Shown: positions 1 to 15,508 of the stretch, piece by piece
How positions within the stretch are numbered: position 1 is the first letter of the stretch
How the letters are laid out: each line of letters opens with the position of its first letter
Virus genome (UHGV): UHGV-0340823
Length of the DNA stretch: 37,778 bases
Direction: 5' to 3' (one strand)
Source: a virus
Translations under genes and position numbers: made by a program
Notes under the pieces: generated by a model
The model's input: the letters and a program-made list of their open reading frames with translations, nothing else
The model's database searches: none
What the model was told of the DNA's origin: nothing

Positions 1-2
1 TC

Positions 3-512
3 AGCCCGAAGTTCGCTGATACGGGCAAAGCCTACCTGGTTGGCCTGGCCGCCACTGATGATCCAGCCAGTCTGGGTACGGAAATGCTGACATTCAGCGC
101 CAGTGCAGCCCATAACCCGTTGGCAAACCGCAAGCAGAATCCCGCCAATCTTTTTACCGCTGCAGAGGAAACGGTGATCGAACTGGAAGAAATCCAGGAG
201 GACAAGCCGTCCCTGTTTGCCCGCGTCACGGCGCTGTTCACCAAAAAAGAGCAGTCCGACGATGCCCGGTTCTCTGATGTGCATAAGGCCGTGGAGCTGG
301 TCGCCACTGAGCAGCAAAACCTGAGCGCACGCACCGAAAAATCCCTGTCTGAGCAGGAAGAACGCCTGTCTAAGTTGGAGACTGCCCTGCAGGCACAACA
401 GGCCGCCTTTAACGAACTGGTGGACAAGCTGAGCCATGAGGACTGCCGCCAGGACTACCGCCAGCGTGCAACAGGCGGTAACGCCCCTGCTGACACTCTG
501 ACCAATTGCTGA
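3..512 (+). CDS. capsid scaffolding protein, P2 gpO-like (5-prime end outside window)
   Basis: Frame is open from the window edge; charged coiled-coil-like C-terminus; lies immediately upstream of the gpN-like capsid gene. Confidence 0.55.
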   Translation, partial: SPKFADTGKAYLVGLAATDDPASLGTEMLTFSASAAHNPLANRKQNPANLFTAAEETVIELEEIQEDKPSLFARVTALFTKKEQSDDARFSDVHKAVELVATEQQNLSARTEKSLSEQEERLSKLETALQAQQAAFNELVDKLSHEDCRQDYRQRATGGNAPADTLTNC

Positions 513-528
513 TGGAGCATAAAACCCG

Positions 529-1587
529 ATGAAGAAGAATACCCGCTTTGCTTTTAACGCTTACCTGCAGCAGCTGGCGCGTCTGAACGGTGTGGCAGTT
601 GAAGAACTGTCCAGCAAGTTCACTGTGGAGCCGTCTGTGCAGCAGACGCTGGAAGACCAGATCCAGCAGTCCGCCGCTTTCCTGACGCTGATTAACGTCA
701 CGCCAGTGACTGAGCAGTCCGGTCAGCTGCTGGGGCTGGGTGTTGGCAGCACCATTGCCGGAACCACTGACACCACCGCGAAAGAGCGTGAACCTGTCGA
801 TCCTACGCTGATGGTCGATGTGGAATACAAATGCGAACAGACCAACTTTGACACGGTGCTGACCTACGCGAAGCTGGACCTGTGGGCGAAGTTTCAGGAT
901 TTCCAGGTGCGTATCCGTAACGCCATCGTGAAACGTCAGGCACTGGACCGCATCATGATCGGCTTTAACGGCGTGAAGCGTGCGAAAACCTCTAACCGTA
1001 GCGAAAACCCGCTACTGCAGGATGTGAATAAAGGCTGGCTGCAGAAAATCCGTGAGGATGCACCGGATCACGTCATGGGCAGCACCACCACGGGCGGTGA
1101 AACCACACCGGGCGCAGTGAAAGTCGGGAAAGGTGGCGAATATGCCAACCTGGACGCCGTGGTGATGGATGCCGTCAATGAGCTTATCGACGTGGTCTAC
1201 CAGGACGATGACGATCTGGTGGTGATTTGCGGTCGTGAACTGCTGTCTGACAAGTATTTCCCGCTGGTCAACAAAGAGCAGGAAAACAGTGAAAAACTGG
1301 CTGCCGATATGATCATCAGTCAGAAACGCATGGGTGGCCTGCAGGCCGTGCGTGCGCCGTTCTTCCCGCCGAATGCGCTGCTGATCACCCGTCTGGATAA
1401 CCTGTCCATCTACTGGCAGGAAGACACCCGCCGCCGTTCAGTTATCGACAACCCGAAACGTGACCGGATTGAAAACTTTGAATCCGTTAACGAAGCCTAT
1501 GTGGTTGAGGACTACCGCTGTGCCGCACTGGTGGAAAACATCCAGATTGGTGATTTCAGCGCCGCCGCAGCCGAAACCGGAGCGTAA
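529..1587 (+). CDS. major capsid protein, P2 gpN family
   Basis: 352 aa; N-terminus MKKNTRFAFNAYLQQLARLNGV and FTVEPSVQQTL closely resemble P2 gpN as recalled. Confidence 0.85.
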   Translation: MKKNTRFAFNAYLQQLARLNGVAVEELSSKFTVEPSVQQTLEDQIQQSAAFLTLINVTPVTEQSGQLLGLGVGSTIAGTTDTTAKEREPVDPTLMVDVEYKCEQTNFDTVLTYAKLDLWAKFQDFQVRIRNAIVKRQALDRIMIGFNGVKRAKTSNRSENPLLQDVNKGWLQKIREDAPDHVMGSTTTGGETTPGAVKVGKGGEYANLDAVVMDAVNELIDVVYQDDDDLVVICGRELLSDKYFPLVNKEQENSEKLAADMIISQKRMGGLQAVRAPFFPPNALLITRLDNLSIYWQEDTRRRSVIDNPKRDRIENFESVNEAYVVEDYRCAALVENIQIGDFSAAAAETGA

Positions 1588-1590
1588 TCC

Positions 1591-2241
1591 ATGAGCCTGA
1601 GTCCCGCACGGCAGCATCGCCTGCGCGTTCAGGCTGAACAGGCCGCCCGCGAGGGCGGCAGTGTTCGCCACGCATCGGGCTATGACCTGATGCTGCTGCA
1701 ACTGGCGGAAGACCGCCGCCGTCTCAAGGGCGTTCAGTCCACGGTGAAAAAAGCGGAAATCAAGGTGGAGCTACTGCCGAAATATGCCGCCTGGGCGGAG
1801 GGCGTCCTGGCTGCCGGAGGCGCTCAACAGGATGACGTGCTGATGTACGTGATGCTGTGGCGCATTGATGCCGGAGATTATGCCGGGGCGCTGGAGATCG
1901 GGCGTCATGCTCTGCGTCATGGCTGGGTGATGCCGCTGGGTAACCGCAACGTGCAGACCGTGCTGGCAGAGGAAATGTCAGACGCGGCGCAGAGCGCAAT
2001 GCTTGCCGCCACCGGCTTTGATGCGGATCTATTACTGCAGACGCTGGAACTGACAGACGGTCTGGATATGCCGGACCAGTCACGGGCGCGTCTGCATAAA
2101 GCGATTGGCGCTGTCCTGAGTGAAAGCAATCCGGCGTCCGCCCTTAATCATCTCAACCATGCGTTACAGCTCGATCCCCGCTGTGGCGTGAAAAAAGACA
2201 AACAGCAGCTGGAGCGCAGACTGCGCAATGACAGCCGCTGA
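1591..2241 (+). CDS. terminase endonuclease subunit, P2 gpM-like
   Basis: Position directly after gpN, 216 aa, ATG 4 nt after the gpN stop. Confidence 0.7.
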   Translation: MSLSPARQHRLRVQAEQAAREGGSVRHASGYDLMLLQLAEDRRRLKGVQSTVKKAEIKVELLPKYAAWAEGVLAAGGAQQDDVLMYVMLWRIDAGDYAGALEIGRHALRHGWVMPLGNRNVQTVLAEEMSDAAQSAMLAATGFDADLLLQTLELTDGLDMPDQSRARLHKAIGAVLSESNPASALNHLNHALQLDPRCGVKKDKQQLERRLRNDSR

Positions 2242-2336
2242 CAGAACGTGCCCCCGCGCACGGGCGGCACGGGGTGGCGAAAGGCACTGCCACATCAAAA
2301 CCCCGTCCACCGCCCTCTATTTCAGGAGAAAGCAGC

Positions 2337-2801
2337 ATGAAGTTTGTTGCGCCAGAACAGGCACCGGAACAGGCGGAAATCATCAGGAATACGCCGTTCT
2401 GGCCTGATGTGGACCTGTCGGAGTTTCGCAGCGTGATGCGCACTGACGGCACGGTGACGCAGCCGCGTTTAAAGCAGGTTGCGCTGTCGGCAATTTCGGA
2501 GGTCAACGCAGAGCTGTATGAGTTTCGCAGGCGCCAGCAGGTGCTGGGGTATGCCTCGCTGGCAGAGGTTCCGGCGGAACAGCTGGACGGCAAAAGTGAG
2601 CGCATTCAGCACTATTTCAACGCGGTTTACTGCTGGGCACGCGCCATGCTCAACGAACGTTACCAGGACTATGACGCCACGGCGTCCGGTGTGAAGCGGG
2701 GCGAGGAACTGGCGGAAGCAAGCGGTGATTTGTGGCGTGACGCCCGCTGGGCCATCAGCCGGGTACAGGACGCGCCGCACTGCACAGTGGAGCTTATCTG
2801 A
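2337..2801 (+). CDS. head completion/stabilisation protein, P2 gpL-like
   Basis: Synteny; ATG at 2337 preceded by AGGAGAAA; stop overlaps next start (ATGA). Confidence 0.7.
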   Translation: MKFVAPEQAPEQAEIIRNTPFWPDVDLSEFRSVMRTDGTVTQPRLKQVALSAISEVNAELYEFRRRQQVLGYASLAEVPAEQLDGKSERIQHYFNAVYCWARAMLNERYQDYDATASGVKRGEELAEASGDLWRDARWAISRVQDAPHCTVELI

Positions 2802-3004
2802 TGAAAGTGCGTGCGCATCAGTATGACACGGTGGACGCGCTTTGCTGGCGTCATTACGGGCGCACGCAGGGTGTCACGGAGCAGGTACTGAAGGCAAATC
2901 CGGGGCTTGCCGAATACGGCCCCTTTTTACCTCACGGGCTGCAGGTGGAGCTGCCGGACATTCCGACCACCACCACCGTGCAGACCGTCCAGCTATGGGA
3001 CTGA
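2801..3004 (+). CDS. tail protein X (P2 gpX-like)
   Basis: 67 aa; motifs DALCWRHYGRTQGV and ANPGLAE match the gpX pattern as recalled. Confidence 0.75.
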   Translation: MKVRAHQYDTVDALCWRHYGRTQGVTEQVLKANPGLAEYGPFLPHGLQVELPDIPTTTTVQTVQLWD

Positions 3005-3007
3005 ATT

Positions 3008-3223
3008 ATGACGCTTGAGCGAATCAGCGCCTTTATCACGTATTGCATCGCCGTCGTGCTGGCCTGGCTGGGCGATTTGTCCATCAAGGATGCCTCAACG
3101 CTGGGCGGCCTGATGATTGGTGTGCTGATGCTGGCTATCAACTGGTACTACAAACACAAAGCCTACCAGCTTCTGCGCGACGGGCAGATCTCGCGGGAGG
3201 ACTATGAATCCATCAATCGTTAA
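3008..3223 (+). CDS. putative holin
   Basis: 71 aa with two hydrophobic segments and a charged C-terminal tail; sits between gpX and the endolysin. Confidence 0.5.
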   Translation: MTLERISAFITYCIAVVLAWLGDLSIKDASTLGGLMIGVLMLAINWYYKHKAYQLLRDGQISREDYESINR

Positions 3224-3716
3224 ACGCTGCCTTGTCGGGGCCGTGCTGGCTATTGCTGCCACGCTGCCGGGTTTTCAGCAGCTTCACACCTCCGTGGAGG
3301 GGCTGAAACTGATTGCCGATTACGAAGGCTGTCGTCTGCAGCCGTATCAGTGCAGCGCGGGTGTCTGGACCGACGGCATTGGTAATACATCGGGCGTCAT
3401 TCCCGGCAAAACAATCACGGAACGACAGGCAGCAGAAGGGCTGATCTCCAACGTGCTGCGTGTGGAGCGGGCACTGGAAAGGTGTGTGAAGCAACAGCCA
3501 CCACAGAAGGTGTATGACGCTACGGTGTCGTTTGCCTTCAACGTGGGGACGGGCAATGCCTGCAGCTCCACGCTGGTGAAATTGCTCAATCAGCGGCGCT
3601 GGGCGGATGCGTGCCGACAGTTGCCGCGCTGGGTTTATGTAAAAGGTGTGTTTAATCAGGGGCTGGATAACCGCCGTGCGCGGGAGATGGCCTGGTGTTT
3701 ACAGGGAGCAAACTGA
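3204..3716 (+). CDS. endolysin, phage lysozyme family with N-terminal SAR-like segment (P2 K-like)
   Basis: E-x8-C-x5-T catalytic pattern (YEGCRLQPYQCSAGVWT); hydrophobic N-terminus CLVGAVLAIAATLPG; GGGAGG before the ATG. Confidence 0.8.
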   Translation: MNPSIVKRCLVGAVLAIAATLPGFQQLHTSVEGLKLIADYEGCRLQPYQCSAGVWTDGIGNTSGVIPGKTITERQAAEGLISNVLRVERALERCVKQQPPQKVYDATVSFAFNVGTGNACSSTLVKLLNQRRWADACRQLPRWVYVKGVFNQGLDNRRAREMAWCLQGAN

Positions 3717-3717
3717 A

Positions 3718-4017
3718 ATGAAAAAGAAATTAATCAGCGGACTGTTTCTGATGTTATGGATGGCGCTGTTAATCGCAGCAATGGTGTATCCGCAGGGGAT
3801 TTTTCCGGTACTGGCAGCGTCCGGCGTTTGGGTAGCCTGTTTGCTGACATGGGCGGTAATTCCGGTAGCACTGGTTGCGTTAATTAAGAATGGCCCGCTC
3901 TGGCAGGAGTTGAGGGCATCTTTGCTGAAGACAATTACCTGTAACCAGGTGAATCATTTGATACCAACGAGGGTTTTAGTGAAAGGAGGTGAAATCACCT
4001 GTAAGATACTGAAATAA
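3718..4017 (+). CDS. LysA-like membrane protein, probably truncated and chimeric at the Mu-like insertion junction
   Basis: Hydrophobic N-terminal two-thirds; the last ~25 codons run through the repeat-dense sequence that starts TGTAAC at 3940. Confidence 0.45.
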   Translation: MKKKLISGLFLMLWMALLIAAMVYPQGIFPVLAASGVWVACLLTWAVIPVALVALIKNGPLWQELRASLLKTITCNQVNHLIPTRVLVKGGEITCKILK

Positions 4018-5213: not shown

Positions 5214-7304
5214 ATGTATGTCATTGCAAAAGAACTGATTGGCGCGCCCGGAATGCCTGCTACAACAAAAGGTATTCGCCAGGCATTACAACGTTACGTA
5301 CAAGGGAAAAGCTGTTGTTCCCGTCGTCGCTCAGGCTCTAAAGCAACTGAATACAGCATCGACTGTTTACCTGAAGTGACGCAGCAGGCATTACGTGAAC
5401 GCTACGCCCTGCAACTGATGACTCAAAAAGTCGATGAATCACCGGTTCCGGTGGTGACAAAGGCCAGACGCTCACCTGACGTGGTTGATGCGGTGGAGGC
5501 ATATCGCGGTTCACCACAACTGATGGTCGAACGCCTCAATGCCCTGACTGAAAAACAGCGCCAGGTGGCAGAGGCACGAATCGCGATTGTCAGCGAGGTG
5601 CTGAAATTCGCGCAACAACCCGGTTTCAGCTGCGCTAGAGCCATCCGTTTTATCGTTGACCGCCTGTCACGCTCACAACTGGACGAGCGCATAGTGGCAA
5701 TGGTTGAGACGGCGAACGCCAAAAAGGGAAACAGCCGCGTGTTGAGTGAAATCACGCTGAAACGCTGGATTGCGGCCTTTAACAAGGCACAGAACGCCGC
5801 TGAACGCCTGCTTTTACTGGCACCGGGTAAACGTCAGGAAATAAAAGCCGAAGATATTAACTGGCTGCCCGAATTTCTGGCGCAGTATCGCCAGTCAAAC
5901 GGCCGACCAATGACCGAGGCTTACGAGGATTTTGTTGCTGAATGGCAGCACCGGCACGCTGATGAGCCTTATATGCTCGATATCATGCCGTCTTATGACA
6001 CCATTCGCCGCGCAATGAAGAAACTGCCGGAAGTGGTGAAACAAAAAGGCCGGGTGACCGGCAGTGAATACCGCCAGCTTGAGGGATTCACGCGCCGCGA
6101 CTGGTCCAGAATGCCGGTGAACTATGTCTGGATTGGTGACGGTCACGGCATGAAGCTGAAATGCAGGCACCCGGTTCACGGGCGGCCATTTGCACCGGAA
6201 GTAACCTTTGTTATCGATGGCGGTACACGCTTTGTGGTGGGCTGGAGCCTTGACCTGGCTGAAAATGTTTTCGCCGTAGCCGGTGCCATACAGCACGGTA
6301 TTCGACATCACGGCAAACCGTTTCTGTATTACTCGGATAATGGCTCCGGGGAAACCGCCGACATCCTGGATAAGGAGATTGTGGGGATACTACCGCGACT
6401 GGGGATTAATCACCCGACCGGGATTGCCGGTAATCCGCAGGGACGGGGCATTATCGAACGGCTTAACCGCACATTACCGATGCGCATAGCCCGTAAATAC
6501 CGCACCTATTTCGGGAAAGGTGCAGATCGCGAGACGTTACGCAAAACCAACCGCGATTTACGCTCGGCATTCACTGCCCTGCAACAGGGCAAGCGGCTGA
6601 ACGCCCGGCAGCAGTCAGCGATGCGTGATTTACCGTCCTGGTCTGAACTGATTGATGCCATTCGTGACGGCGTTGAGTGGTACAACAACCGGCCGCACGA
6701 TGAATTACCCATGAAGCCGAACGGTAAACATTACAGCCCGGCGGAGTTCAGAAAAAAACGCCTGGCAGAAGAGGACACGGAAATTGAATGGCTGTCCGAT
6801 GTGGAATTGCGGGACATGTTCCGGCCGATGGTGGAACGCCCTGTAAGACGCTGTGAAATACGCTGGCTGAATAATATTTACTACGCGCCCGAGCTGCGTG
6901 ATGAACATGGCCGCAAAGTGCTTATCAGCTATGACATTCATGATGCCGAACGAATTACCGTACGTCGCCCGGATGGCAGCGTGATTTGCGAGGCGGTATG
7001 GGACGGCAATAAACGCGAAGCCTTCCCGGTCAGCGCGGAATACTACAAACAGCAGCAGCGCCTTAAAGGTATGCGTAAACGCGCAGAGGAAAAAATCCGT
7101 GATGCCGAGGATGAGGTTGTCAACGTGCTGGAGCACAAGCCGCAGGAGCCATGGCTGGAAAACATCTACCGCCCGGTGGGTAATACGGTGGCCGTTCAGC
7201 AACCTGCCGTTGATGATGAACCTGATGAAGAATACGAGCGTAATTTCCAGCGGGGATTGCAGTTGCTGGAAGCGAAATTAAAAGAAAATGACCCGCTGGC
7301 CTGA
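5214..7304 (+). CDS. DDE transposase, MuA-like
   Basis: 696 aa directly after ner; WIGDGHG motif analogous to the MuA catalytic region. Confidence 0.85.
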   Translation: MYVIAKELIGAPGMPATTKGIRQALQRYVQGKSCCSRRRSGSKATEYSIDCLPEVTQQALRERYALQLMTQKVDESPVPVVTKARRSPDVVDAVEAYRGSPQLMVERLNALTEKQRQVAEARIAIVSEVLKFAQQPGFSCARAIRFIVDRLSRSQLDERIVAMVETANAKKGNSRVLSEITLKRWIAAFNKAQNAAERLLLLAPGKRQEIKAEDINWLPEFLAQYRQSNGRPMTEAYEDFVAEWQHRHADEPYMLDIMPSYDTIRRAMKKLPEVVKQKGRVTGSEYRQLEGFTRRDWSRMPVNYVWIGDGHGMKLKCRHPVHGRPFAPEVTFVIDGGTRFVVGWSLDLAENVFAVAGAIQHGIRHHGKPFLYYSDNGSGETADILDKEIVGILPRLGINHPTGIAGNPQGRGIIERLNRTLPMRIARKYRTYFGKGADRETLRKTNRDLRSAFTALQQGKRLNARQQSAMRDLPSWSELIDAIRDGVEWYNNRPHDELPMKPNGKHYSPAEFRKKRLAEEDTEIEWLSDVELRDMFRPMVERPVRRCEIRWLNNIYYAPELRDEHGRKVLISYDIHDAERITVRRPDGSVICEAVWDGNKREAFPVSAEYYKQQQRLKGMRKRAEEKIRDAEDEVVNVLEHKPQEPWLENIYRPVGNTVAVQQPAVDDEPDEEYERNFQRGLQLLEAKLKENDPLA

Positions 7305-7375: not shown

Positions 7376-8308
7376 ATGACTGATATTAACGATGTAATCA
7401 AGACCATTGATGAACTTATTGATGGCGGCGTACTGACGCAGTATGCCATCGCCAGAGAGGCGGGAATTTCCGATGGCACATTATCGGCTTTCCGTAAGGG
7501 AAAATATAAAGGCGATAACGCTGCTGTGGCTGCTTCCCTGCGTTCCTGGTATGAGAACTGGAATAAACAAAGCGCACTGCCCGAGCCGCCGCAGTTTGTG
7601 GAAACGCAGACAGTCCAGGAGCTGCGCGCGCTGTTTCAGGCGGTCCGCCTGATGGGCTGTATTAACGTCATAGTGGGCGTGCCCGGGGTGGGTAAAACGG
7701 CCACCGCCCGTAATTACTGCCAGGAGCAACCAAACACCTGGATGATCACCCTGTCTCCCGCGCATTCCAGCGTCACGGAGTGTCTGCTGGAGCTGGCCGA
7801 TGCGCTGGGGATTGATTATACCCGCGCGAACAAAGGGGCGTTATCCCGCGCCATCCGCCGTCGCCTGATGGGAACGCGTGGACTGGTGATTGTGGATGAG
7901 GCGGATCATCTTGGTATTGACGGTCTGGAGCAACTCCGGGCAATCCAGGACGCCACGGGGATCGGGATGGTGCTTATTGGTAACCCGCGCGGACTGTTTA
8001 AGGGGGGGCGCCGCGCCGTTGATGATTTATCGCGCCTGTTCAGCCGTCTTGCCCGTACAAAACAACTTCGCAAGGCCAAAAAGGCGGATGTGCTGGCTAT
8101 TGCCAGGGCGTGGGGTATCAGTGGTGAGGCCGAGCTGGCTGTCATGCAGGCTATCGCTGAAAAACCGGGAGCATTACGTGTTCTGACACATACGCTTAAC
8201 CAGGCATGGATCACCGCCAGTGGTGAAGGCGCGGCGCTGACAGAAAAACATATTAATGCGGCCTTTAAAGAGGTTTATACCAACCCTGAATTACTCTCAC
8301 AGGTGTGA
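7376..8308 (+). CDS. transposition ATPase, MuB-like (AAA+)
   Basis: Walker A GVPGVGKT; DEAD-like VIVDEADHL; position after the transposase. Confidence 0.85.
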   Translation: MTDINDVIKTIDELIDGGVLTQYAIAREAGISDGTLSAFRKGKYKGDNAAVAASLRSWYENWNKQSALPEPPQFVETQTVQELRALFQAVRLMGCINVIVGVPGVGKTATARNYCQEQPNTWMITLSPAHSSVTECLLELADALGIDYTRANKGALSRAIRRRLMGTRGLVIVDEADHLGIDGLEQLRAIQDATGIGMVLIGNPRGLFKGGRRAVDDLSRLFSRLARTKQLRKAKKADVLAIARAWGISGEAELAVMQAIAEKPGALRVLTHTLNQAWITASGEGAALTEKHINAAFKEVYTNPELLSQV

Positions 8309-8310
8309 TT

Positions 8311-8532
8311 ATGGCGGTATTTTATATTCCTGATATTTACGGACGCTTTTACCTGGTTAATTTCGATAACGTGAAGGTGATTTCACTGGCCGAAAATAAA
8401 GAATGTGGCGATTTACTTTTTGAATTTAATGACCGCACACGAATGGTGATATCTGCCGGACTTGATCGCGAAGGTGCGACAGAAGTTTACAGCGGAATAT
8501 GCCGTTCTGTTGGTGCGAAACAAGTCAGCTAA
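8311..8532 (+). CDS. hypothetical early protein
   Basis: ORF with ATG at 8311 just after the B stop; no recognisable motif. Confidence 0.4.
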   Translation: MAVFYIPDIYGRFYLVNFDNVKVISLAENKECGDLLFEFNDRTRMVISAGLDREGATEVYSGICRSVGAKQVS

Positions 8533-8544
8533 ATGAGGTGTTAT

Positions 8545-8799
8545 ATGAATATGCAATCCTGCGGTAACAAAATGAATTTATTCGACTCCCTGAACAGCGC
8601 GCGCCGTCTGACCGAACTTGCCGGTGCGGTACTGGAACGCAGTAAGCGCTACCCACAACGTTTTGCACTGAAAACCACGCCGCCGGTAGGCAACGTGCAG
8701 GGAACCGGTGAAATTGAAATCACCATACAGACCAACGGCCTGCGCCGCCGTGTGAAGGCCACCCGCATAAGCGGATGCACGGTTTACTGGGAGGTGTGA
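8545..8799 (+). CDS. hypothetical early protein
   Basis: ORF; GAGGTG precedes the ATG at 8545. Confidence 0.4.
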   Translation: MNMQSCGNKMNLFDSLNSARRLTELAGAVLERSKRYPQRFALKTTPPVGNVQGTGEIEITIQTNGLRRRVKATRISGCTVYWEV

Positions 8800-8800
8800 G

Positions 8801-9082
8801 ATGAAACGAAATCTGATTGCGTGGGCGTGGTCGAGCGGTCTCATTGAGTTTGGTTACGTCCTGCCGGAAGGTGCATTGCCGATAGTTGCCGGAAAGCCTG
8901 CCACAGTACGGCATGTGATTGAGGTTATGGCGCGTCATGGACGTGATGAACAGGAGCAGTTACTGGTTCCGGGGATACCGGAAGCGGTGACGGAGGAAGA
9001 AGCCTTTAATGCCATGATTCGGTTCTGCCGTGAGGTCAGACGCCGGGTCAGTTATCCAAACAGAACGAGGACCAGAGGATGA
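8801..9082 (+). CDS. hypothetical early protein
   Basis: ORF translationally coupled to its neighbours. Confidence 0.4.
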   Translation: MKRNLIAWAWSSGLIEFGYVLPEGALPIVAGKPATVRHVIEVMARHGRDEQEQLLVPGIPEAVTEEEAFNAMIRFCREVRRRVSYPNRTRTRG

Positions 9083-9351
9083 GTAAAGTTGTACGCATTA
9101 TTTTCGAATACAAGGAGCACGTTATCCATAAAAACGCTGATGAAACAGTGCACATGGGGGTAAGTCTGGACATACGTTCAACCGGGATAAAGCAGAAAGG
9201 TGATGGACCCGCCATGATTTTTGGGGTGGTTATGCTCGCGGAAAGCAGAGACTTTGCTGAACTTGTGGCAATGAAAGCCAGAGCGCTCATGAAAGATATG
9301 AACATGAGTTCCGGGGTTATTAAAGGTAATGAATTTAATCAGCAGGGGTAA
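9079..9351 (+). CDS. hypothetical early protein, paralog 1 of a tandem pair
   Basis: N-terminus MSKVVRIIFEYKEH parallels the next ORF. Confidence 0.45.
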   Translation: MSKVVRIIFEYKEHVIHKNADETVHMGVSLDIRSTGIKQKGDGPAMIFGVVMLAESRDFAELVAMKARALMKDMNMSSGVIKGNEFNQQG

Positions 9352-9355
9352 TTCC

Positions 9356-9649
9356 ATGAGCAAAGTACGCGTTATTTTTGAATTTGAGAATGTTTCGCAT
9401 GACGAAAAGCTGGCAGGCAATGACTGTGTTGAAGTGCATGAAAAGATTGGTGTGGATGTGAAAACAGAACGTGATACGGAGAACAGCCCGACGTCACTCT
9501 GTGATGTTTATGCAAGTATTCTCCAGTATCACAGTCCTGCAATTATTCATTTCCTCTCAGCGGAATTTCAGGCATCTGCACAGGATTTTGGAGCGGATGC
9601 CATCATTAAACACCACCGCGTGCATAAAGCATCAGGCACACTGCAATAA
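9356..9649 (+). CDS. hypothetical early protein, paralog 2 of a tandem pair
   Basis: N-terminus MSKVRVIFEFENVSH parallels the previous ORF. Confidence 0.45.
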   Translation: MSKVRVIFEFENVSHDEKLAGNDCVEVHEKIGVDVKTERDTENSPTSLCDVYASILQYHSPAIIHFLSAEFQASAQDFGADAIIKHHRVHKASGTLQ

Positions 9650-9660
9650 GGAAAAACAAA

Positions 9661-10191
9661 ATGGCTAAACGCGTTACAAAATTAAAGGCCGCAGCCGAGG
9701 CCGCACCACAGACCCGCGAAGAAGTCAGCCGCGATATCCGACGCTTTGGGGATATGCAGCGTGAGGCGCTGCGCCTGGAAACAGCGATGAATGACGAAGT
9801 GGCAGAAATTACCGCCCGTTATACGCCGCAGATTGAAAACCTTAAAAAAGAAATCAAAGTGCTTTTTAAAGGGATTCAGGACTGGTGTAAAACCAACCGC
9901 AATGAGCTGACGAACGGCGGTGAAACCAAAACAGCCAATCTGACCACCGGAACGGTGTCATGGCGGCTGGGAACGCCATCATGCAGCGTCAGCCGTGATG
10001 TGGAAGGCGTGATTGAAATGCTGCGCCGTATGGGCCTTGAGCGCTTCATCCGCACGAAAGAGGAAGTGAATAAGCAAGCTGTCCTGGCGGAGCCGGATGC
10101 GGTGAAAGACATTGCCGGTATTAAGGTGAATAAAGGCGCTGAAAGTTTTTATGTCGAGCCTTTTGAACAGGACGCCGGACTGAACAAATAA
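9661..10191 (+). CDS. gam: host-nuclease inhibitor Gam (Mu Gam / Ku-like)
   Basis: Near-colinear similarity to Mu Gam as recalled (GDMQREALRLETAMNDEVAEI, ELTNGGETKTANLTTGTVSWR, ERFIRTKEEVNK). Confidence 0.85.
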   Translation: MAKRVTKLKAAAEAAPQTREEVSRDIRRFGDMQREALRLETAMNDEVAEITARYTPQIENLKKEIKVLFKGIQDWCKTNRNELTNGGETKTANLTTGTVSWRLGTPSCSVSRDVEGVIEMLRRMGLERFIRTKEEVNKQAVLAEPDAVKDIAGIKVNKGAESFYVEPFEQDAGLNK

Positions 10192-10288
10192 CACCGCATT
10201 AAATCTTTAAATATCACTTCATTTTAATTATGGCGCTCGCGTCAGGGGACTGCCTGCGCCTGTAAACTGAAAATAAGGAACAGGAAAT

Positions 10289-10831
10289 ATGGCATATTTT
10301 TATTTCAAATTAGACTGTGTGCAGACAAATAAATATTTCACCAAATATCAACAGACTGTTTTACCGCTACGCAACAGTATTCTTCGGGCGTTACTGAAAA
10401 ATACAGGCGCTACCGGATTGCGCTTAAAGCCGTTCGCCATGGACGTAATCAGTGAGTTTTATTTTTCCGGTGCTCTGCCTGCGGGCTGGTGTAAGCGCGA
10501 TGATGTGGCTTTTATCGGTGGTGGACAGTGCTTTATAGCCAGACCTGATGAGTCATGCCCTGAAGGAGCGGCGATTGCCGCAATGATTGAAGCCGCTGAA
10601 CGCGAGTTAAGAAAGCGTCCTGATTTCCTTGTCTGGCTCTGTGAAAAGCTGGGGGTAATGAGAATCCCCTCCATGTTTAACACGGACTCCTGGTGGACCC
10701 CGTCGCTCTCCCGTGATGCCCTGTGCGTGGTGTTTAAAGTAGGCGCTTATGGCAGGGAAATAAAAGGGTGTATTCCTGAAGAATGCCAGGAGATTAAACA
10801 TTCTGAATATGTGGCGCTGACGGAGGAATAA
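10289..10831 (+). CDS. hypothetical protein (accessory block)
   Basis: 180-aa ORF with AAGGAA before the ATG; Cys-rich; no recognised motif. Confidence 0.45.
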   Translation: MAYFYFKLDCVQTNKYFTKYQQTVLPLRNSILRALLKNTGATGLRLKPFAMDVISEFYFSGALPAGWCKRDDVAFIGGGQCFIARPDESCPEGAAIAAMIEAAERELRKRPDFLVWLCEKLGVMRIPSMFNTDSWWTPSLSRDALCVVFKVGAYGREIKGCIPEECQEIKHSEYVALTEE

Positions 10832-10834
10832 TTC

Positions 10835-11368
10835 ATGATTGATGCAAAAGTGCTTGAAGGGGTTAAAAACTGGCTGCGTTTTTCTGGCCGTCTGACCAGT
10901 CGTTCTCTGGCAGAAAAAATGAATATGCCGCTATCCTCCATGGTTTATTTTCTGCGTGATGCGGTTGATGCAGGCGTGCTGACGGACCGTAACGGTTTTT
11001 ATGATATTCCGCGTCCCCGCCCGGTGCAGCCGGTTCGTCGCAAATGCAGCCAGGAGTCTGCGGCTGATGATGTTCAGTGGTGCAGCTTCAGAAAATCCCT
11101 GCCGTGGATTGAAGGGCATGATATTCCGTCGATGGCGTGGGAATTTGCTCAGGGCGTTCTGACCTGTGAAACCGTTTATGTGGTGGCTGAAGTTGATGAG
11201 CAGGCCATGAAAGAAGGCGTGCCCCAGTTTGTGATGGCGTATATCGACATTCGCCTGGGTGTCATTATCTGCGGTTTAAGCGGCTGGAATATCACCGAAC
11301 ATGTTCTGCGTTACCTGATTGTTGACCGGACGGCTGCGCCTGCCGGGATATCTGCGGAGGTGGCGTAA
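10835..11368 (+). CDS. hypothetical protein with N-terminal winged-helix-like segment
   Basis: ORF starts 4 nt after the previous stop; N-terminal 60 aa resemble a small HTH regulator. Confidence 0.45.
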   Translation: MIDAKVLEGVKNWLRFSGRLTSRSLAEKMNMPLSSMVYFLRDAVDAGVLTDRNGFYDIPRPRPVQPVRRKCSQESAADDVQWCSFRKSLPWIEGHDIPSMAWEFAQGVLTCETVYVVAEVDEQAMKEGVPQFVMAYIDIRLGVIICGLSGWNITEHVLRYLIVDRTAAPAGISAEVA

Positions 11369-11883
11369 TGTTCTTTAAAACATCAAACCCTTCCGCGCTG
11401 GCTGCGTGGCAAAAATACCAGCAGGACTGCCAGAAAGTTAAGGATGAGGCAAAACGCCTTGAGGCCGTGCTGAATGTTGCGTGCCGGTCGGTATTTGTAT
11501 CCGGTATCAGTGGATTTTGCTTTAAGGGACTGCGTTTTACGGAGGACAAATATCCTTTTCATCGCGACTTATGGCGAAAACCGACTGCGTCGAATGGCTG
11601 GAGCTGCACACCGCGCACATCACGTATCCCTAAAACCCTGCGTGTTGCCTCTGATGAACTGTACAGTCTGTGGCGTGAATATTCGCCCGTCACGTATGCC
11701 AGAACCGATGCGCTGTTGTTCTGGCTGGGTATTGATTTCTCGGCAATCCTGTTTGGCCCTGTGAAGTGGTTCTGCGTTGACGATGTGATTTACCTTCAGT
11801 GCGGCGTAAAACCCGCAAAACAGAAAATGACCGAAATACTGTCTGATGAGTTTTATGCTGCTGAAAAGCGAGTCAGGGGGTGA
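11368..11883 (+). CDS. hypothetical protein
   Basis: Start overlaps the previous stop (TAATG). Confidence 0.45.
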   Translation: MFFKTSNPSALAAWQKYQQDCQKVKDEAKRLEAVLNVACRSVFVSGISGFCFKGLRFTEDKYPFHRDLWRKPTASNGWSCTPRTSRIPKTLRVASDELYSLWREYSPVTYARTDALLFWLGIDFSAILFGPVKWFCVDDVIYLQCGVKPAKQKMTEILSDEFYAAEKRVRG

Positions 11884-11886
11884 TGC

Positions 11887-12438
11887 ATGATGAAATTACA
11901 ACCCATGGGACTAAAAGGTCGCGCCCCCGCTCATGTCCGTCCGTGGACACCTGAAGAAGATGCGCTGCTGATTGCGCTTTATTCATCCACCCCGGTTAAG
12001 GATATTGCTGCCAGAATAAAAAGAACTGTCTGGGCTGTATATAACCGGACTGGTGTATTGCGCAGTTCATACCCGGAGTTACTGAAATATAAACACCCAA
12101 GATTTACACCTGATGAAGATAAGTTTATTCGAAAAAATGCCAGAACAATGACCTGCCAGCAAATGGGAGAATATCTCGGACGTAATAAAGATTCTGTCAG
12201 ATGTCGGGCAGGAATGATTGGTGCTGGATTAACAAAGTGCGGAGAGTTACGCCCCGGCACGCGCATATCTGATTATGATGTACGTCTTATACGTGCGCTG
12301 CGTGATTCCGATTACCCACGCCGTCTGTCATTCCGGGAAATTGGCGAAAAGTTTGGAATATCTGAACATTCTGCTCACGCAGTTTATTACCGTCGCCGGA
12401 CTGCCGAGGACGCTGTATTACGGGAGTTAACGCCATGA
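11887..12438 (+). CDS. hypothetical DNA-binding protein with tandem Myb/SANT-like helix-turn-helix repeats
   Basis: Repeated WTPEEDALL / FTPDEDKFI motifs at about 50-aa spacing plus a third HTH-like segment. Confidence 0.45.
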   Translation: MMKLQPMGLKGRAPAHVRPWTPEEDALLIALYSSTPVKDIAARIKRTVWAVYNRTGVLRSSYPELLKYKHPRFTPDEDKFIRKNARTMTCQQMGEYLGRNKDSVRCRAGMIGAGLTKCGELRPGTRISDYDVRLIRALRDSDYPRRLSFREIGEKFGISEHSAHAVYYRRRTAEDAVLRELTP

Positions 12439-12746
12439 TAACGACCTTATTTGTTGAATCAGATGAACCTCTTGTGTGTGCCGCCGGAATGCCGCTCTGT
12501 GGCGGAACGCTGACCGGTGTTTATTTCGGGGATTTACGCGGTTATCCCTGGCATTCACTGAATGATGCTTTCCCACCTGATATGGAGGCTGTCGTGCTGA
12601 TTGTTCAGTATGGTCACCGTCAGGAGCTGCGCATCGGCCATATGGGGTATGAAGGCTTTTTTGTTGATGAAGAAACCGGAGCCTGCCTTGAAGATGAGGA
12701 CGGACAGGTGACGCACTGGTGCCATATTTCAGCTTTACCGGAATGA
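12435..12746 (+). CDS. hypothetical protein (possibly DUF551-like)
   Basis: 103 aa; C-terminal VTHWCHISALPE resembles small phage DUF551 proteins as recalled; weak. Confidence 0.4.
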   Translation: MITTLFVESDEPLVCAAGMPLCGGTLTGVYFGDLRGYPWHSLNDAFPPDMEAVVLIVQYGHRQELRIGHMGYEGFFVDEETGACLEDEDGQVTHWCHISALPE

Positions 12747-13111
12747 CGGGAGGTGAATGCGTGAGAAGTTATATTGATAATGAAAAACTGAAGACAATCA
12801 GCGACTGTCTTAGCTTGCTGGCAAAAATAAAAGAAACCATTGAAGAGATTAAATTTCAGCTTGAATACGCACCCTGTGGTGATGATACATGGCGTAACTC
12901 TGCCAGAAAAGCACTGGCTGTCTTTCAGAAACAACGCCGGACTGTTGAATACCGCCTTGCTGTATTACGCCAGGAGGAAAAGGAAAGAAATATAAGATGT
13001 CACGAGCGCGTTAATAACTTCCTTGTTCGTGAATTAAAAGAACGTGTGCCGGAGTCGGTATTTTTTGAGTGTGAGGCTGTTGCCCGTAGCAAAGCACTGG
13101 AAACTGATTAA
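12743..13111 (+). CDS. hypothetical protein (AT-rich moron)
   Basis: ATGA overlap with the previous stop; coiled-coil-like; visibly AT-richer than flanking DNA. Confidence 0.4.
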   Translation: MTGGECVRSYIDNEKLKTISDCLSLLAKIKETIEEIKFQLEYAPCGDDTWRNSARKALAVFQKQRRTVEYRLAVLRQEEKERNIRCHERVNNFLVRELKERVPESVFFECEAVARSKALETD

Positions 13112-13123
13112 ACAGGCAGGTGA

Positions 13124-13459
13124 ATGATGAGTATTGAATTAAGATCGTCTTATGAATATCGTAAAATTCTCATCGCCGGAGGCATGAAACCGGAAGATGC
13201 AGAAAAAATTGTTTCTTTTATGGATAAAGAATGTGACAAACGGGATATGCCAGAAATTATTATGGATGACATGATTCTGCATTCAGCCGTAGCGTTAAGC
13301 CCGTTATGGATTGTGCATTCTCTTGCTGAAATTGCCAAAGGCACCGATAAACAGGCAGCTGTTGCTGCCCTTCAGACGCTTAATGAAATGCGTATATCTC
13401 CACGCCCGACATTAATACATATGATTCTCTCCAGTATGGAGGATAAAGCAAATGAATAG
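13124..13459 (+). CDS. hypothetical protein (AT-rich moron)
   Basis: ORF in an AT-rich stretch. Confidence 0.4.
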   Translation: MMSIELRSSYEYRKILIAGGMKPEDAEKIVSFMDKECDKRDMPEIIMDDMILHSAVALSPLWIVHSLAEIAKGTDKQAAVAALQTLNEMRISPRPTLIHMILSSMEDKANE

Positions 13460-13649
13460 TCTACCCGCTGGATGGGCGCGGCCACTAATGGCCAGGAAGC
13501 ATCATTTTTTTAAAACAGGCGAAAATATCAGTATATGTGGACGGTGGTTATATCTGGCTCATAATCGCGAGCCGGATACATTTGAAAGCCCTGATGACTG
13601 TGCCGAATGCCGCAGAAGAGTGAATAAGGAGAAAGATAATGGACAATAG
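13452..13649 (+). CDS. hypothetical small Cys-containing protein
   Basis: 65 aa with ICGRW and DDCAEC; possible zinc-binding. Confidence 0.35.
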   Translation: MNSLPAGWARPLMARKHHFFKTGENISICGRWLYLAHNREPDTFESPDDCAECRRRVNKEKDNGQ

Positions 13650-13935
13650 TTCTCTGTTGTTCTGGTGCTTATATATCACATCCTTTTTCGGCGCATTTGT
13701 TATTACCCGGTGGTTATGTCGAAAAATCATCTGCTTTTTTGATAAAAGACATCCGGTTGAACGGGCGGCTGATGCGCTCATTCAGCAGGCCATTGTGTTA
13801 TATAGCGGTGAATTTTTCTGCCGGATAACAACCAGAGATGGCTGGCACATAATGATTATTCCGCCAACACACCATGCCCGGTGGGATGAGGCAGAAAAGG
13901 CTTTCCATGTCCGTAAAAAGGTAAATACGGTATGA
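13639..13935 (+). CDS. hypothetical membrane protein
   Basis: N-terminal hydrophobic segment LLFWCLYITSFFGAFVI. Confidence 0.4.
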   Translation: MDNSSLLFWCLYITSFFGAFVITRWLCRKIICFFDKRHPVERAADALIQQAIVLYSGEFFCRITTRDGWHIMIIPPTHHARWDEAEKAFHVRKKVNTV

Positions 13936-14441
13936 GAGGAAAACTGATATCCGCCATTCATGTGGCAAAGCGCGAGCTTGCCCTGGATGATGAGACTTAT
14001 ACATTCGTGCTGCTGGCAGCCACCGGCAAAACCAGCTGCCGGGATATGTCACCGGATGAGTTGTCCCGCGTGCTGGATGTTTTCAAAAAACGCGGTTTTA
14101 AAGTGCGTCAGAACCCGGTTAACCGGGCCTTAAAACCGGGTACGGTGACCGCTAAAATTCGCGCCATCTGGAAGGTGATGCACCGGCAGGGCTTTATCTC
14201 TGATGGTGCGGAAACCGCTCTTAACCGCTGGGTGAAATCGCAGACGGCCGCGCAGAACGGCGGCGAAGGTGTGGCAAACTGGCAGTGGCTGGAGCAACAC
14301 CCCGCCCTGGCCTCAGATGTGCTGGAGCGTCTCAAGCGATGGCACCGCCGCAAAATGCTGGCCGCGATGGGAATGCCCGAACGCACGCTGATGGGGTATG
14401 ACGCCGTTTGCAGGCAGTATGAAAAATCACTTCCCCGTTAA
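13932..14441 (+). CDS. gemA: GemA-like protein (Mu gp16 family)
   Basis: Position just upstream of the Mor/C gene; KRELALDDETY and CRDMSPDEL motifs resemble the gp16 family as recalled. Confidence 0.55.
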   Translation: MRGKLISAIHVAKRELALDDETYTFVLLAATGKTSCRDMSPDELSRVLDVFKKRGFKVRQNPVNRALKPGTVTAKIRAIWKVMHRQGFISDGAETALNRWVKSQTAAQNGGEGVANWQWLEQHPALASDVLERLKRWHRRKMLAAMGMPERTLMGYDAVCRQYEKSLPR

Positions 14442-14445
14442 CCCC

Positions 14446-14476
14446 AAATCCCGCCACAACGCGGGATTTTTATTTT
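14446..14476 (+). terminator. Rho-independent terminator after the gemA-like gene
   Basis: 9-bp stem AAATCCCGC / GCGGGATTT with 6-nt loop followed by TTATTTT. Confidence 0.7.
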
Positions 14477-14510
14477 AAACTTACCGGGAACGCGAGAACC
14501 GGAGGCTGAT

Positions 14511-14936
14511 ATGGCAGAAACTCAGATGAGCATGTTTGGTGGTGACAGTGAGCAACTGCACGCCCTTATCGACCGCCTTGATGACATCCCTGATGATGTT
14601 CTCAAAAAGAACTGGCCGCGGACCCTGTCAGAACTGGTTGAAGTCACCGGCGCAGAACTTCAGCGTCAGGGGATTGAGCCGGTACTGGCCGGTAAACTGG
14701 CACGCAAGGTGGCTGCGGCTCAGGCAGCCTATATGGGCGGACGGGGTTATTACCTGCCGGTCGGGGAATCTCTCTTTGCCGAGCTGCGAAACAATGAGAT
14801 ATTTTCGCGCTGGGACCGGGGCGAGAAAATTGAATCCCTTCGCCGCCATTACCGGATGTCAGAAACCCAGATTTATACCGTCATACGTGAACAGCGCCGT
14901 CTGCATCTGGCAAGAACGCAACCGCCACTTTTCTGA
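14511..14936 (+). CDS. Mor/C-family transcriptional activator (middle or late gene activator)
   Basis: 141 aa; resembles Mu Mor/C in length and C-terminal HTH region; GGAGG before the ATG. Confidence 0.7.
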   Translation: MAETQMSMFGGDSEQLHALIDRLDDIPDDVLKKNWPRTLSELVEVTGAELQRQGIEPVLAGKLARKVAAAQAAYMGGRGYYLPVGESLFAELRNNEIFSRWDRGEKIESLRRHYRMSETQIYTVIREQRRLHLARTQPPLF

Positions 14937-15007
14937 TATTCCGCAAAGCCTGCCGCCTTTCCTTCACCGTTACGCTGACTCAGAGAACATCATGAGACAG
15001 CGTAACA

Positions 15008-15508
15008 ATGCCAAAACTCCCCGCACCACTGCGTAAAAAGCTGATTGCCCTTGTTCTGGCCGGTGCCGGGACGTTCACGATTGCCACGCATTACACCGGT
15101 TACTGGGAAGGGAAAGAAAACTCCACGTATATCGATCCCACCGGTACACCCACCATCTGTTACGGCCATACCGGCCCGGATGTGAAACCGGGTATGACCC
15201 TGACGGATGAAGAATGCCTGGAACTACTGGAAAAGGACATGAAATGGGCCTTTGCGGCCATTGATCGGCGTGTTCAGGTGCCGCTTACCCGTGGTCAGAC
15301 TGTGGCGCTGGCTTCGTGGATCTTCTGGGCCGGTGAAACGAACTTCCGCAACTCCACGCTTCTGCGCCTGATCAATGCCGGGCAGATGCCCGCGTCCTGT
15401 AAGCAGTATATCCGCTGGATTTATTCAAAGGGGGTGAAACTCCCCGGCCTTGAGGCCCGCCGTTCGGCGGATGAATGGTTATGTCGCTACGACTTGCCGA
15501 AAGTCTGA
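15008..15508 (+). CDS. endolysin, phage lysozyme family with N-terminal SAR-like segment (Mu lys-like)
   Basis: E-x8-D-x5-T pattern (WEGKENSTYIDPTGTPT); hydrophobic Gly/Ala-rich N-terminus LIALVLAGAGTFTIA. Confidence 0.8.
   Translation: MPKLPAPLRKKLIALVLAGAGTFTIATHYTGYWEGKENSTYIDPTGTPTICYGHTGPDVKPGMTLTDEECLELLEKDMKWAFAAIDRRVQVPLTRGQTVALASWIFWAGETNFRNSTLLRLINAGQMPASCKQYIRWIYSKGVKLPGLEARRSADEWLCRYDLPKV

Follow-up and report, generated by a model that had tools for sequence, protein, structure and literature searches.

The 37,778-nt virus genome UHGV-0340823, called the window here and taken at its full length, carries a Mu-like element in which nine open reading frames (ORFs) lie between gam and gemA. 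These were numbered O1 to O9 in order, and all coordinates are those of the window (Table 1). An earlier note on this DNA had described the block as nine tightly coupled genes in the position of the Mu semi-essential region. The ORFs, all on the + strand, were found where it had placed them, and a RefSeq record that is 100% identical over the block stretch annotates the same nine coding sequences. The position was borne out by the order of genes on the + strand, A (5214–7304), B (7376–8308), a Kil homologue, gam, gemA, mor (14511–14936) and lysozyme, and by orthologues of Mu gp11 and gp12 within the block. Published accounts of this region in Mu describe poor conservation, small proteins that are uncharacterised, and transcription from Pe (PMC8705779, PMC3820752).

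Table 1. Features between gam and gemA, with both anchor genes (window coordinates; aa, amino acids)
Feature	Position	Strand	Description
gam	9661–10191	+	Left anchor; 55% identical to Mu Gam over full length; RefSeq: Gam family protein
Spacer after gam	10192–10288	+	Non-coding; left junction of the variable region
O1	10289–10831	+	180 aa; divergent DUF5420 / phrog_2260 relative; variable
O2	10835–11368	+	Mu gp11 homologue; near-universal backbone gene
O3	11368–11883	+	Mu gp12 homologue (PF26885); basic alpha/beta protein
O4	11887–12438	+	183 aa, very basic; three Myb/SANT-like helix-turn-helix (HTH) repeats; fixed in lineage
O5	12435–12746	+	103 aa, acidic; rare family; variable
O6	12761–13111 (alternative start 12743)	+	116 aa (122 aa from 12743); looks like a coiled coil; variable
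O7	13124–13459	+	110/111 aa, probably helical; SfMu gp14 relative; variable but common
O8	13452–13649	+	65 aa; H...C...CxxC pattern; presumed zinc binder
O9	13639–13935	+	98 aa; one N-terminal hydrophobic helix, then positive charges; membrane-anchored
gemA	13932–14441	+	Right anchor; 43% identical to Mu GemA; RefSeq: gp16 family protein

The interval was compared with related loci among 73 IMG/VR contigs, which were retrieved by an exact motif from the spacer after gam. Both anchor genes were present at 41 loci, which were counted, and for eleven related loci each gene was compared individually. The distance from gam to gemA ranged from 1027 to 4150 bp, with 29 ORF families in 28 architectures, and the interval in the window was the second longest of the 41. 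O2 was found in 39 of the 41 loci and O3 in 27; the O7 family occurred in 24 (duplicated in one), O4 in 16 and O1 in 15. O5, O6, O8 and O9 each occurred in six to eight (seven for O5, six for O6 and eight for O9), and all nine genes occurred together at just one other locus, LC727881.

The same pattern was seen among close relatives. In prophages with gam 94–100% identical (mostly ~95%), O1 and O5–O9 were individually present, absent or replaced, and in the E. coli prophages of the lineage (gam 95–96% identical) O2, O3 and O4 were always present. Within the lineage, O5 was either present or swapped for a 61-aa two-helix peptide, O6 was rare, and O7–O8 were carried by about half. Some relatives instead bore the Mu-type cassette, with genes for a gp14-like protein and a Cys-rich, gp13-like one and an ORF on the minus strand. 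Nucleotide identity jumped from gene to gene; O4, for example, was 78% identical while its neighbours were 92–97% identical. A comparison for such cassette-like variability among related Mu-like prophages had been suggested in the earlier note. On this comparison of sequences, the interval is a recombination hotspot of independent early accessory genes.

At LC727881, two additional small ORFs lie between O4 and O5 (locus L006, 3647–4056). One encodes a 61-aa peptide that has two hydrophobic helices, the other a 75-aa acidic protein without a PHROG match, which marks the O4/O5 junction as a hotspot for insertion.

The genes of the block are closely packed. True overlaps occur at 11368 (1 nt), 12435 (4 nt), 13452 (8 nt), 13639 (11 nt) and 13932 (4 nt). 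Among the stop/start overlaps listed previously, those at 11368 and 12435 were genuine, the junctions at 10831/10835 and 11883/11887 proved to be 3-nt spacers, and the one at 12743 depends on the ambiguous start of O6. The ATG at 12743 overlaps the O5 stop and has no Shine-Dalgarno sequence; the GTG at 12761 is preceded by a strong GGGAGGTGA site and is the start chosen in RefSeq and in the PHROG alignment. A clear ribosome-binding site precedes eight of the nine genes, and likewise O6 when the 12761 start is taken. Scanning for expression signals gave seven promoter-like sites in the block, as against 8.1 ± 3.0 in shuffled sequences, and 11 terminator-like sites, with 8.2 expected from shuffles; no promoter/terminator pair in the block bracketed any gene. 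Given the synteny with Mu, the ribosome-binding sites and stop/start overlaps, and internal signals that did not rise above chance, the block genes would be expressed in the long early Pe transcript, as in Mu.

Base composition differs along the block. The G+C (GC) content was 0.431 in O6–O9 (0.425 in O6 and 0.399 in O7), 0.495 in O1–O5 and 0.561 in the late region. The value for O6–O9 lies in the lowest 0.7% of equal-sized prophage windows and is equally low only at the repressor end, so that the distal part is indeed AT-richer, as had been remarked from inspection. The difference between 0.43 and the 0.56 of the late genes could be taken to mean that O6–O9 are classical morons, which would have their own promoter, be expressed from the repressed prophage in lysogenic conversion and benefit the host. 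Four weak + strand sigma-70-like sites do cluster at 13139–13853, and for Mu lysogens it has been proposed that a low level of transcription from Pe is beneficial to the host (PMC3820752). However, promoter-like sites were no more numerous than in shuffled sequences, and their cluster tracks AT-richness. No terminator brackets these genes, and there are overlaps of 4–11 nt among them and with gemA, as members of an operon would show. The earlier note had suggested that the distal genes were separately acquired morons; that O6–O9 are independently transcribed ones is unlikely.

The variable genes were each examined for relatives. O1 belongs with phrog_2260 (9e-73) and scored 13.1 bits against Pfam PF17457 (DUF5420), below the cut-off of 26. 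NCBI applies the name DUF5420 to a 38%-identical relative of O1 and to the SfMu homologue, and by sequence O1 is at best a divergent DUF5420 relative. A homologue occupies the same place in SfMu and in Yersinia Mu-like phages, and none was detected in Mu. O1 was missing at three of the compared loci (L010–L012) and substituted by a 23%-identical homologue at a fourth (L005). Its ratio of non-synonymous to synonymous substitution rates (dN/dS) was 0.37–0.56.

O5 falls in phrog_6925 and carries a charge of -14. Its family is rare, as only 18 matches were obtained among 1.8 billion representative proteins. In a different Mu-like prophage, a 36%-identical relative directly follows a Gp11_C gene. 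Membership of DUF551 (PF04448) was considered, and a shared W...P...VTHW...P pattern was recognised by eye only. O5 itself gave no match to this family and two of six relatives matched weakly (best E 0.025), so support for the assignment was marginal only. O6 (phrog_6158) has homologues of 39–41% identity in phages Fraca, AsXd-1 and SaltyDalty, which are lambdoid, where they are accessory genes upstream of xis/int; one lambdoid homologue adjoins a Lar-like restriction-alleviation gene and an anti-repressor. O7 (phrog_1988) is 34% identical to the SfMu protein at 8141–8449.

O8 and O9 are the small Cys-motif protein and the membrane protein that had been picked out in the distal part. O8 (phrog_2358) gave tblastn matches in 197 phage records, 167 of them from Pseudomonas phages, mostly Pbunavirus, so that it is found in unrelated phages both lytic and temperate; in phages F8 and Sa179lw the homologue lies among small early genes. 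Residues H18, C29, C50 and C53 are invariant across distant homologues, and O8 is presumed from this pattern to bind zinc. A profile of four O8 relatives matched bovine pancreatic trypsin inhibitor (BPTI) and its variants (E 0.004–0.05). The only other Kunitz-type inhibitor scored E 0.94, three of six Cys were aligned, and Pfam gave no match; the resemblance was taken as probably due to chance, though a small fold stabilised by metal would fit with it. O9 has a hydrophobic stretch at residues 5–23 (Kyte-Doolittle 1.82). It falls in phrog_17269 and within the phage collection is confined to this lineage, where it occurs as two alleles, 51% identical to each other, or is absent.

Searches for function with the nine proteins were largely negative. 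No enzyme family was matched in Pfam, NCBIfam or PADLOC, in keeping with the earlier failure to recognise an enzymatic motif, and public records give 'hypothetical protein' for every block gene but O4. The PHROGs matched by O6–O9 have no assigned function. No defence model in PADLOC-DB was matched at E ≤ 0.01, the sole listed match being that of O7 to PDC-S72 (E 0.035). Sequence searches of the PDB with O1, O2, O3, O4, O5, O7 and O9 returned nothing below E 0.5, and a repeat search within the block gave short chance matches only. The nine proteins were absent from the supplementary files of the accessory-gene screen of Silas et al. (PMC12373910). In the literature, no paper was found that named DUF5420, PF25754 or PF26885 or characterised the block genes, and searches on 'Mup11', 'Mup12' and like names returned mouse MUP papers only.

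Could the nine genes nonetheless form one coherent anti-defence, superinfection-exclusion or host-takeover module, as the earlier note had proposed? They are tightly packed on the same strand with overlapping stops and starts, and the functions of all nine are unassigned. The small acidic O5, the membrane-anchored O9 and O8 with its Cys motif are also of types frequent among the counter-defence or exclusion factors of phages, a link to function that is our own. The genes did not co-vary, however: O1 and O5–O9 each come and go, and the complete set recurred only once. O6 and O8 stand alone in unrelated phages, PADLOC gave no match, and tight packing is common to the whole Mu early operon. The 28 arrangements, together with the occurrence of O6 and O8 in other phages, indicate a hotspot of independent genes and not one coherent system; O2, O3 and O4, moreover, are backbone genes and not morons. 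A single nine-gene module is accordingly improbable.

The three backbone genes were analysed further. O2 is 65% identical to Mu gp11 over its full length and scored 139.1 bits with Pfam PF25754 (Gp11_C), for which the cut-off is 27, in a match of residues 90–167 that spans the complete model. Its layout is an N-terminal three-helix, winged-helix-like part followed by the C-terminal Gp11_C beta domain. The family comprises 221 clusters, and the named matches among the best 120 were all from Enterobacterales (E. coli, Salmonella). The AlphaFold2 (AF2) model of O2 was poor, with a predicted local distance difference test (pLDDT) score of 57. Foldseek comparison of this model with the PDB found nothing below E 0.1, and the weak matches were mostly to winged HTH/Lrp-AsnC regulators.

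O3 is 54% identical to Mu gp12 over its full length, and its relatives carry PF26885. The family is smaller (46 clusters), with named matches again all from Enterobacterales (E. coli, Salmonella). The predicted fold of this gp12-like protein was confident and had no relative in the PDB. Full-length fold matches were solely to uncharacterised phage proteins of 14–21% identity, which suggests that the modelled fold belongs to a wider, unnamed structural family.

O4 matched phrog_323, 'transcriptional regulator, D5-like' (1.3e-51). BLASTP between Mu gp9 and O4 was not significant; their relationship is drawn from the placement of Mu gp9/E8 in the same PHROG. The three repeats of O4 align to one another and to Mu gp9. 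RefSeq names the protein SANT/Myb-like, and it has an isoelectric point of 10.0 and a charge of +14. O4 was present in all 16 loci of the same gam type, as two alleles that were ~70–72% or 97–100% identical to the copy in the window. We infer that O2 and O4 bind DNA. O1 and O3 were also considered as paralogues on account of their similar length, a weak collinear alignment and C-terminal motifs that look alike (IKHSEYVALTEE and EILSDEFYAAEKR). Paralogy was unsupported by sequence: BLASTP was not significant, the hhalign probability was 0.3%, and 68 of 150 column shuffles scored as high or higher.

The homology of O2 and O3 to gp11 and gp12, the membership of O4 in the PHROG of Mu gp9 and the spread of the O7 family over more than half of the loci might suggest that the whole set belongs to a conserved core of Mu-like early genes. 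This is very unlikely. Only O2 is near-universal, and O1, O5, O6, O8 and O9 were each restricted to 6–15 of the 41 loci and were not detected in Mu. The presence/absence matrix contradicts a core assignment for six of the nine genes; a conserved core with known functions was among the outcomes that the earlier note had said would refute its view.

All nine ORFs gave pairwise dN/dS values of 0.00–0.59 against relatives, which indicates purifying selection on every one of them and that the genes are real. Insertion sequences or truncations occur in some related loci (H42, H50, L012), but with dN/dS well under 1 for every ORF, intact ribosome-binding sites, full-length PHROG matches for all nine and exact protein sequences that recur on hundreds to thousands of contigs (at least 1000 each for O7, O8 and O9), it is hardly credible that some are non-functional remnants in a decaying prophage.

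Comparison with known systems placed the block more closely. The Mu semi-essential region (genes 11–15) has the same position, strand and flanks (A, B, kil, gam ... gemA, mor), and both contain the gp11 and gp12 orthologues, a conserved spacer after gam and a string of small unassigned genes. The Mu region has five genes in 1.9 kb, whereas the block has nine in 3.7 kb. In the block, gp13, gp14 and gp15 are replaced by O4–O9 and O1 is inserted before the gp11 homologue; the Myb-type regulator follows the gp12 homologue, whereas Mu gp9 lies before gam. Prophages of the Sp18 type in Shiga toxin-producing E. coli (STEC), that is, Sp18 of O157:H7 Sakai and its relatives, among them the Mu-like elements inserted in Shiga toxin (Stx) phages LC727881 and LC727895, are of the same lineage, with 92–97% nucleotide identity in shared genes. 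Most of these relatives lack O5 and O6, or O6–O9, or O1, or carry other small ORFs, and the exact set of nine is uncommon.

Accessory-gene hotspots of other temperate phages, such as the lambdoid pL region upstream of xis/int, are a further parallel. They too hold low-GC small genes that are shuffled between phages, early-expressed and dispensable as those of the block would be, and an O6 homologue is found in one such region. They differ in backbone and replication mode, and the hotspot in the block lies inside a transposition/early operon with no int/xis. For Mu, an accessory role has been reported for E6 of the semi-essential region, termed gnarl2 (PMC12373910). This protein (E6/gp7) is encoded in the same operon and is reported to act in modifying the host surface (Silas et al., PMC12373910), so genes of the semi-essential operon can be host-directed. 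gnarl2 lies upstream of gam, and none of the block proteins is a homologue of it.

Taken together, these data make it likely that the block is the distal half of a semi-essential early operon, built of a three-gene backbone and swappable single genes. The backbone proteins O2, O3 and O4 would act on phage or host DNA or transcription early in lytic growth. O1 and O5–O9 are gained, lost or exchanged singly, by recombination at or near gene boundaries, and would serve as dispensable early factors, each aimed on its own at the host or at rival phages through takeover, counter-defence or exclusion. Gene content differs among viable relatives, which is indirect evidence that such genes can be dispensed with for plaque formation. 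A host- or competitor-directed role is the most likely general function of the cassette genes.

Several points weigh against this interpretation. The 41 loci are not independent, many coming from closely related isolates, and the ORF tiling used to count architectures was crude. Transcription from Pe and translational coupling are deduced from the layout. The proposed DNA binding by O2 leans on a model with a pLDDT of 57 and on matches above E 0.1, and the HTH matches of O4 in Pfam are weak, falling short of their cut-offs (Myb 19.7 against 24.4; HTH_AsnC 20.4 against 27). NCBIfam, PADLOC and the PDB, the last by sequence or by fold, gave no significant match for the nine proteins.

A more specific proposal is tentative, and on balance doubtful: that at least one exchangeable gene, with O5, O8, O9 and O1 as candidates, encodes a factor of a new kind for counter-defence or superinfection exclusion, or else that the conserved gp11/gp12 pair regulates replication or early transcription in a Muvirus-specific way. 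In STEC prophages the cassette genes are plausible candidates for functions directed at the host or at competing phages, and the gp12-like fold is a candidate new structural family. For decades the Mu semi-essential region has been a list of unnamed ORFs; here the backbone is separated from one-gene cassettes that are exchanged among prophages and with unrelated phages, giving a short ranked list for experiment. Taken on its own, the block is an unremarkable case of a phage accessory region of familiar type. The description of it as undescribed holds for function. It does not hold for the type of region, the prophage lineage or the sequences, which public databases already contain.

The non-coding spacer that marks the left junction was examined separately. 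An AT-rich tract is followed by a GC hairpin at ~10232–10260, GGCGC...GTCAGGGGAC...GCGCC, which is not followed by a T-run; the motif used for retrieval covers 10223–10246. The spacer is 72–75% identical to that of Mu, compared with 59–70% in flanking coding DNA, and an alignment of Mu, SfMu, Tongde and this lineage contained 52 invariant columns. Rfam gave no match over 8000–15200, and the folding energy was not unusual (z-score -0.69). The spacer may be a site of mRNA processing or stability, or a protein-binding site.

The wider setting of the element was also defined. Positions 9661–14441 match E. coli SW070917 (NZ_CM129862) with 100% identity, and prophages with 92–97% identity to them were present in 232 of the 5426 complete E. 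coli genomes (~4%), many of them STEC (such as O157:H7 and O103). A Mu-like prophage of the Sp18 type is known from O157 Sakai (PMC2669165, PMC4406740), and on sequence identity the host element is an Sp18-type Mu-like prophage of E. coli. To its left, positions 1–4017 carry P2-like late genes, encoding the gpO scaffold, gpN capsid, gpM small terminase and gpL head completion proteins and a lysozyme, which indicates that the Mu-like element was inserted in another prophage. The left flank in NZ_CM129862 has lambdoid tail genes instead, and the rest is otherwise identical; the differing flanks indicate that the window derives from another insertion or another genome. No match was found to the Mu left-end L1 motif, which was sought to fix the end of the prophage.

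Between B and gam, the Kil homologue occupies 8545–8799 (phrog_2679), and the gene at 8801–9082 falls in phrog_1518, 'host nuclease inhibitor'. Two small proteins, encoded at 9079–9351 and 9356–9649, have N-termini that resemble Mu gp7/E6 (gnarl2), and their PHROGs differ. The first of these genes (9080–9351) is flagged as frameshifted by RefSeq in the identical record, yet it matches phrog_4107 over its full length. At the other end, gemA and mor overlap in Mu, whereas here they are separated by a gap of 69 nt. This gap contains a strong terminator-like hairpin at 14446–14469, with a 9-bp stem followed by TTATTTT.

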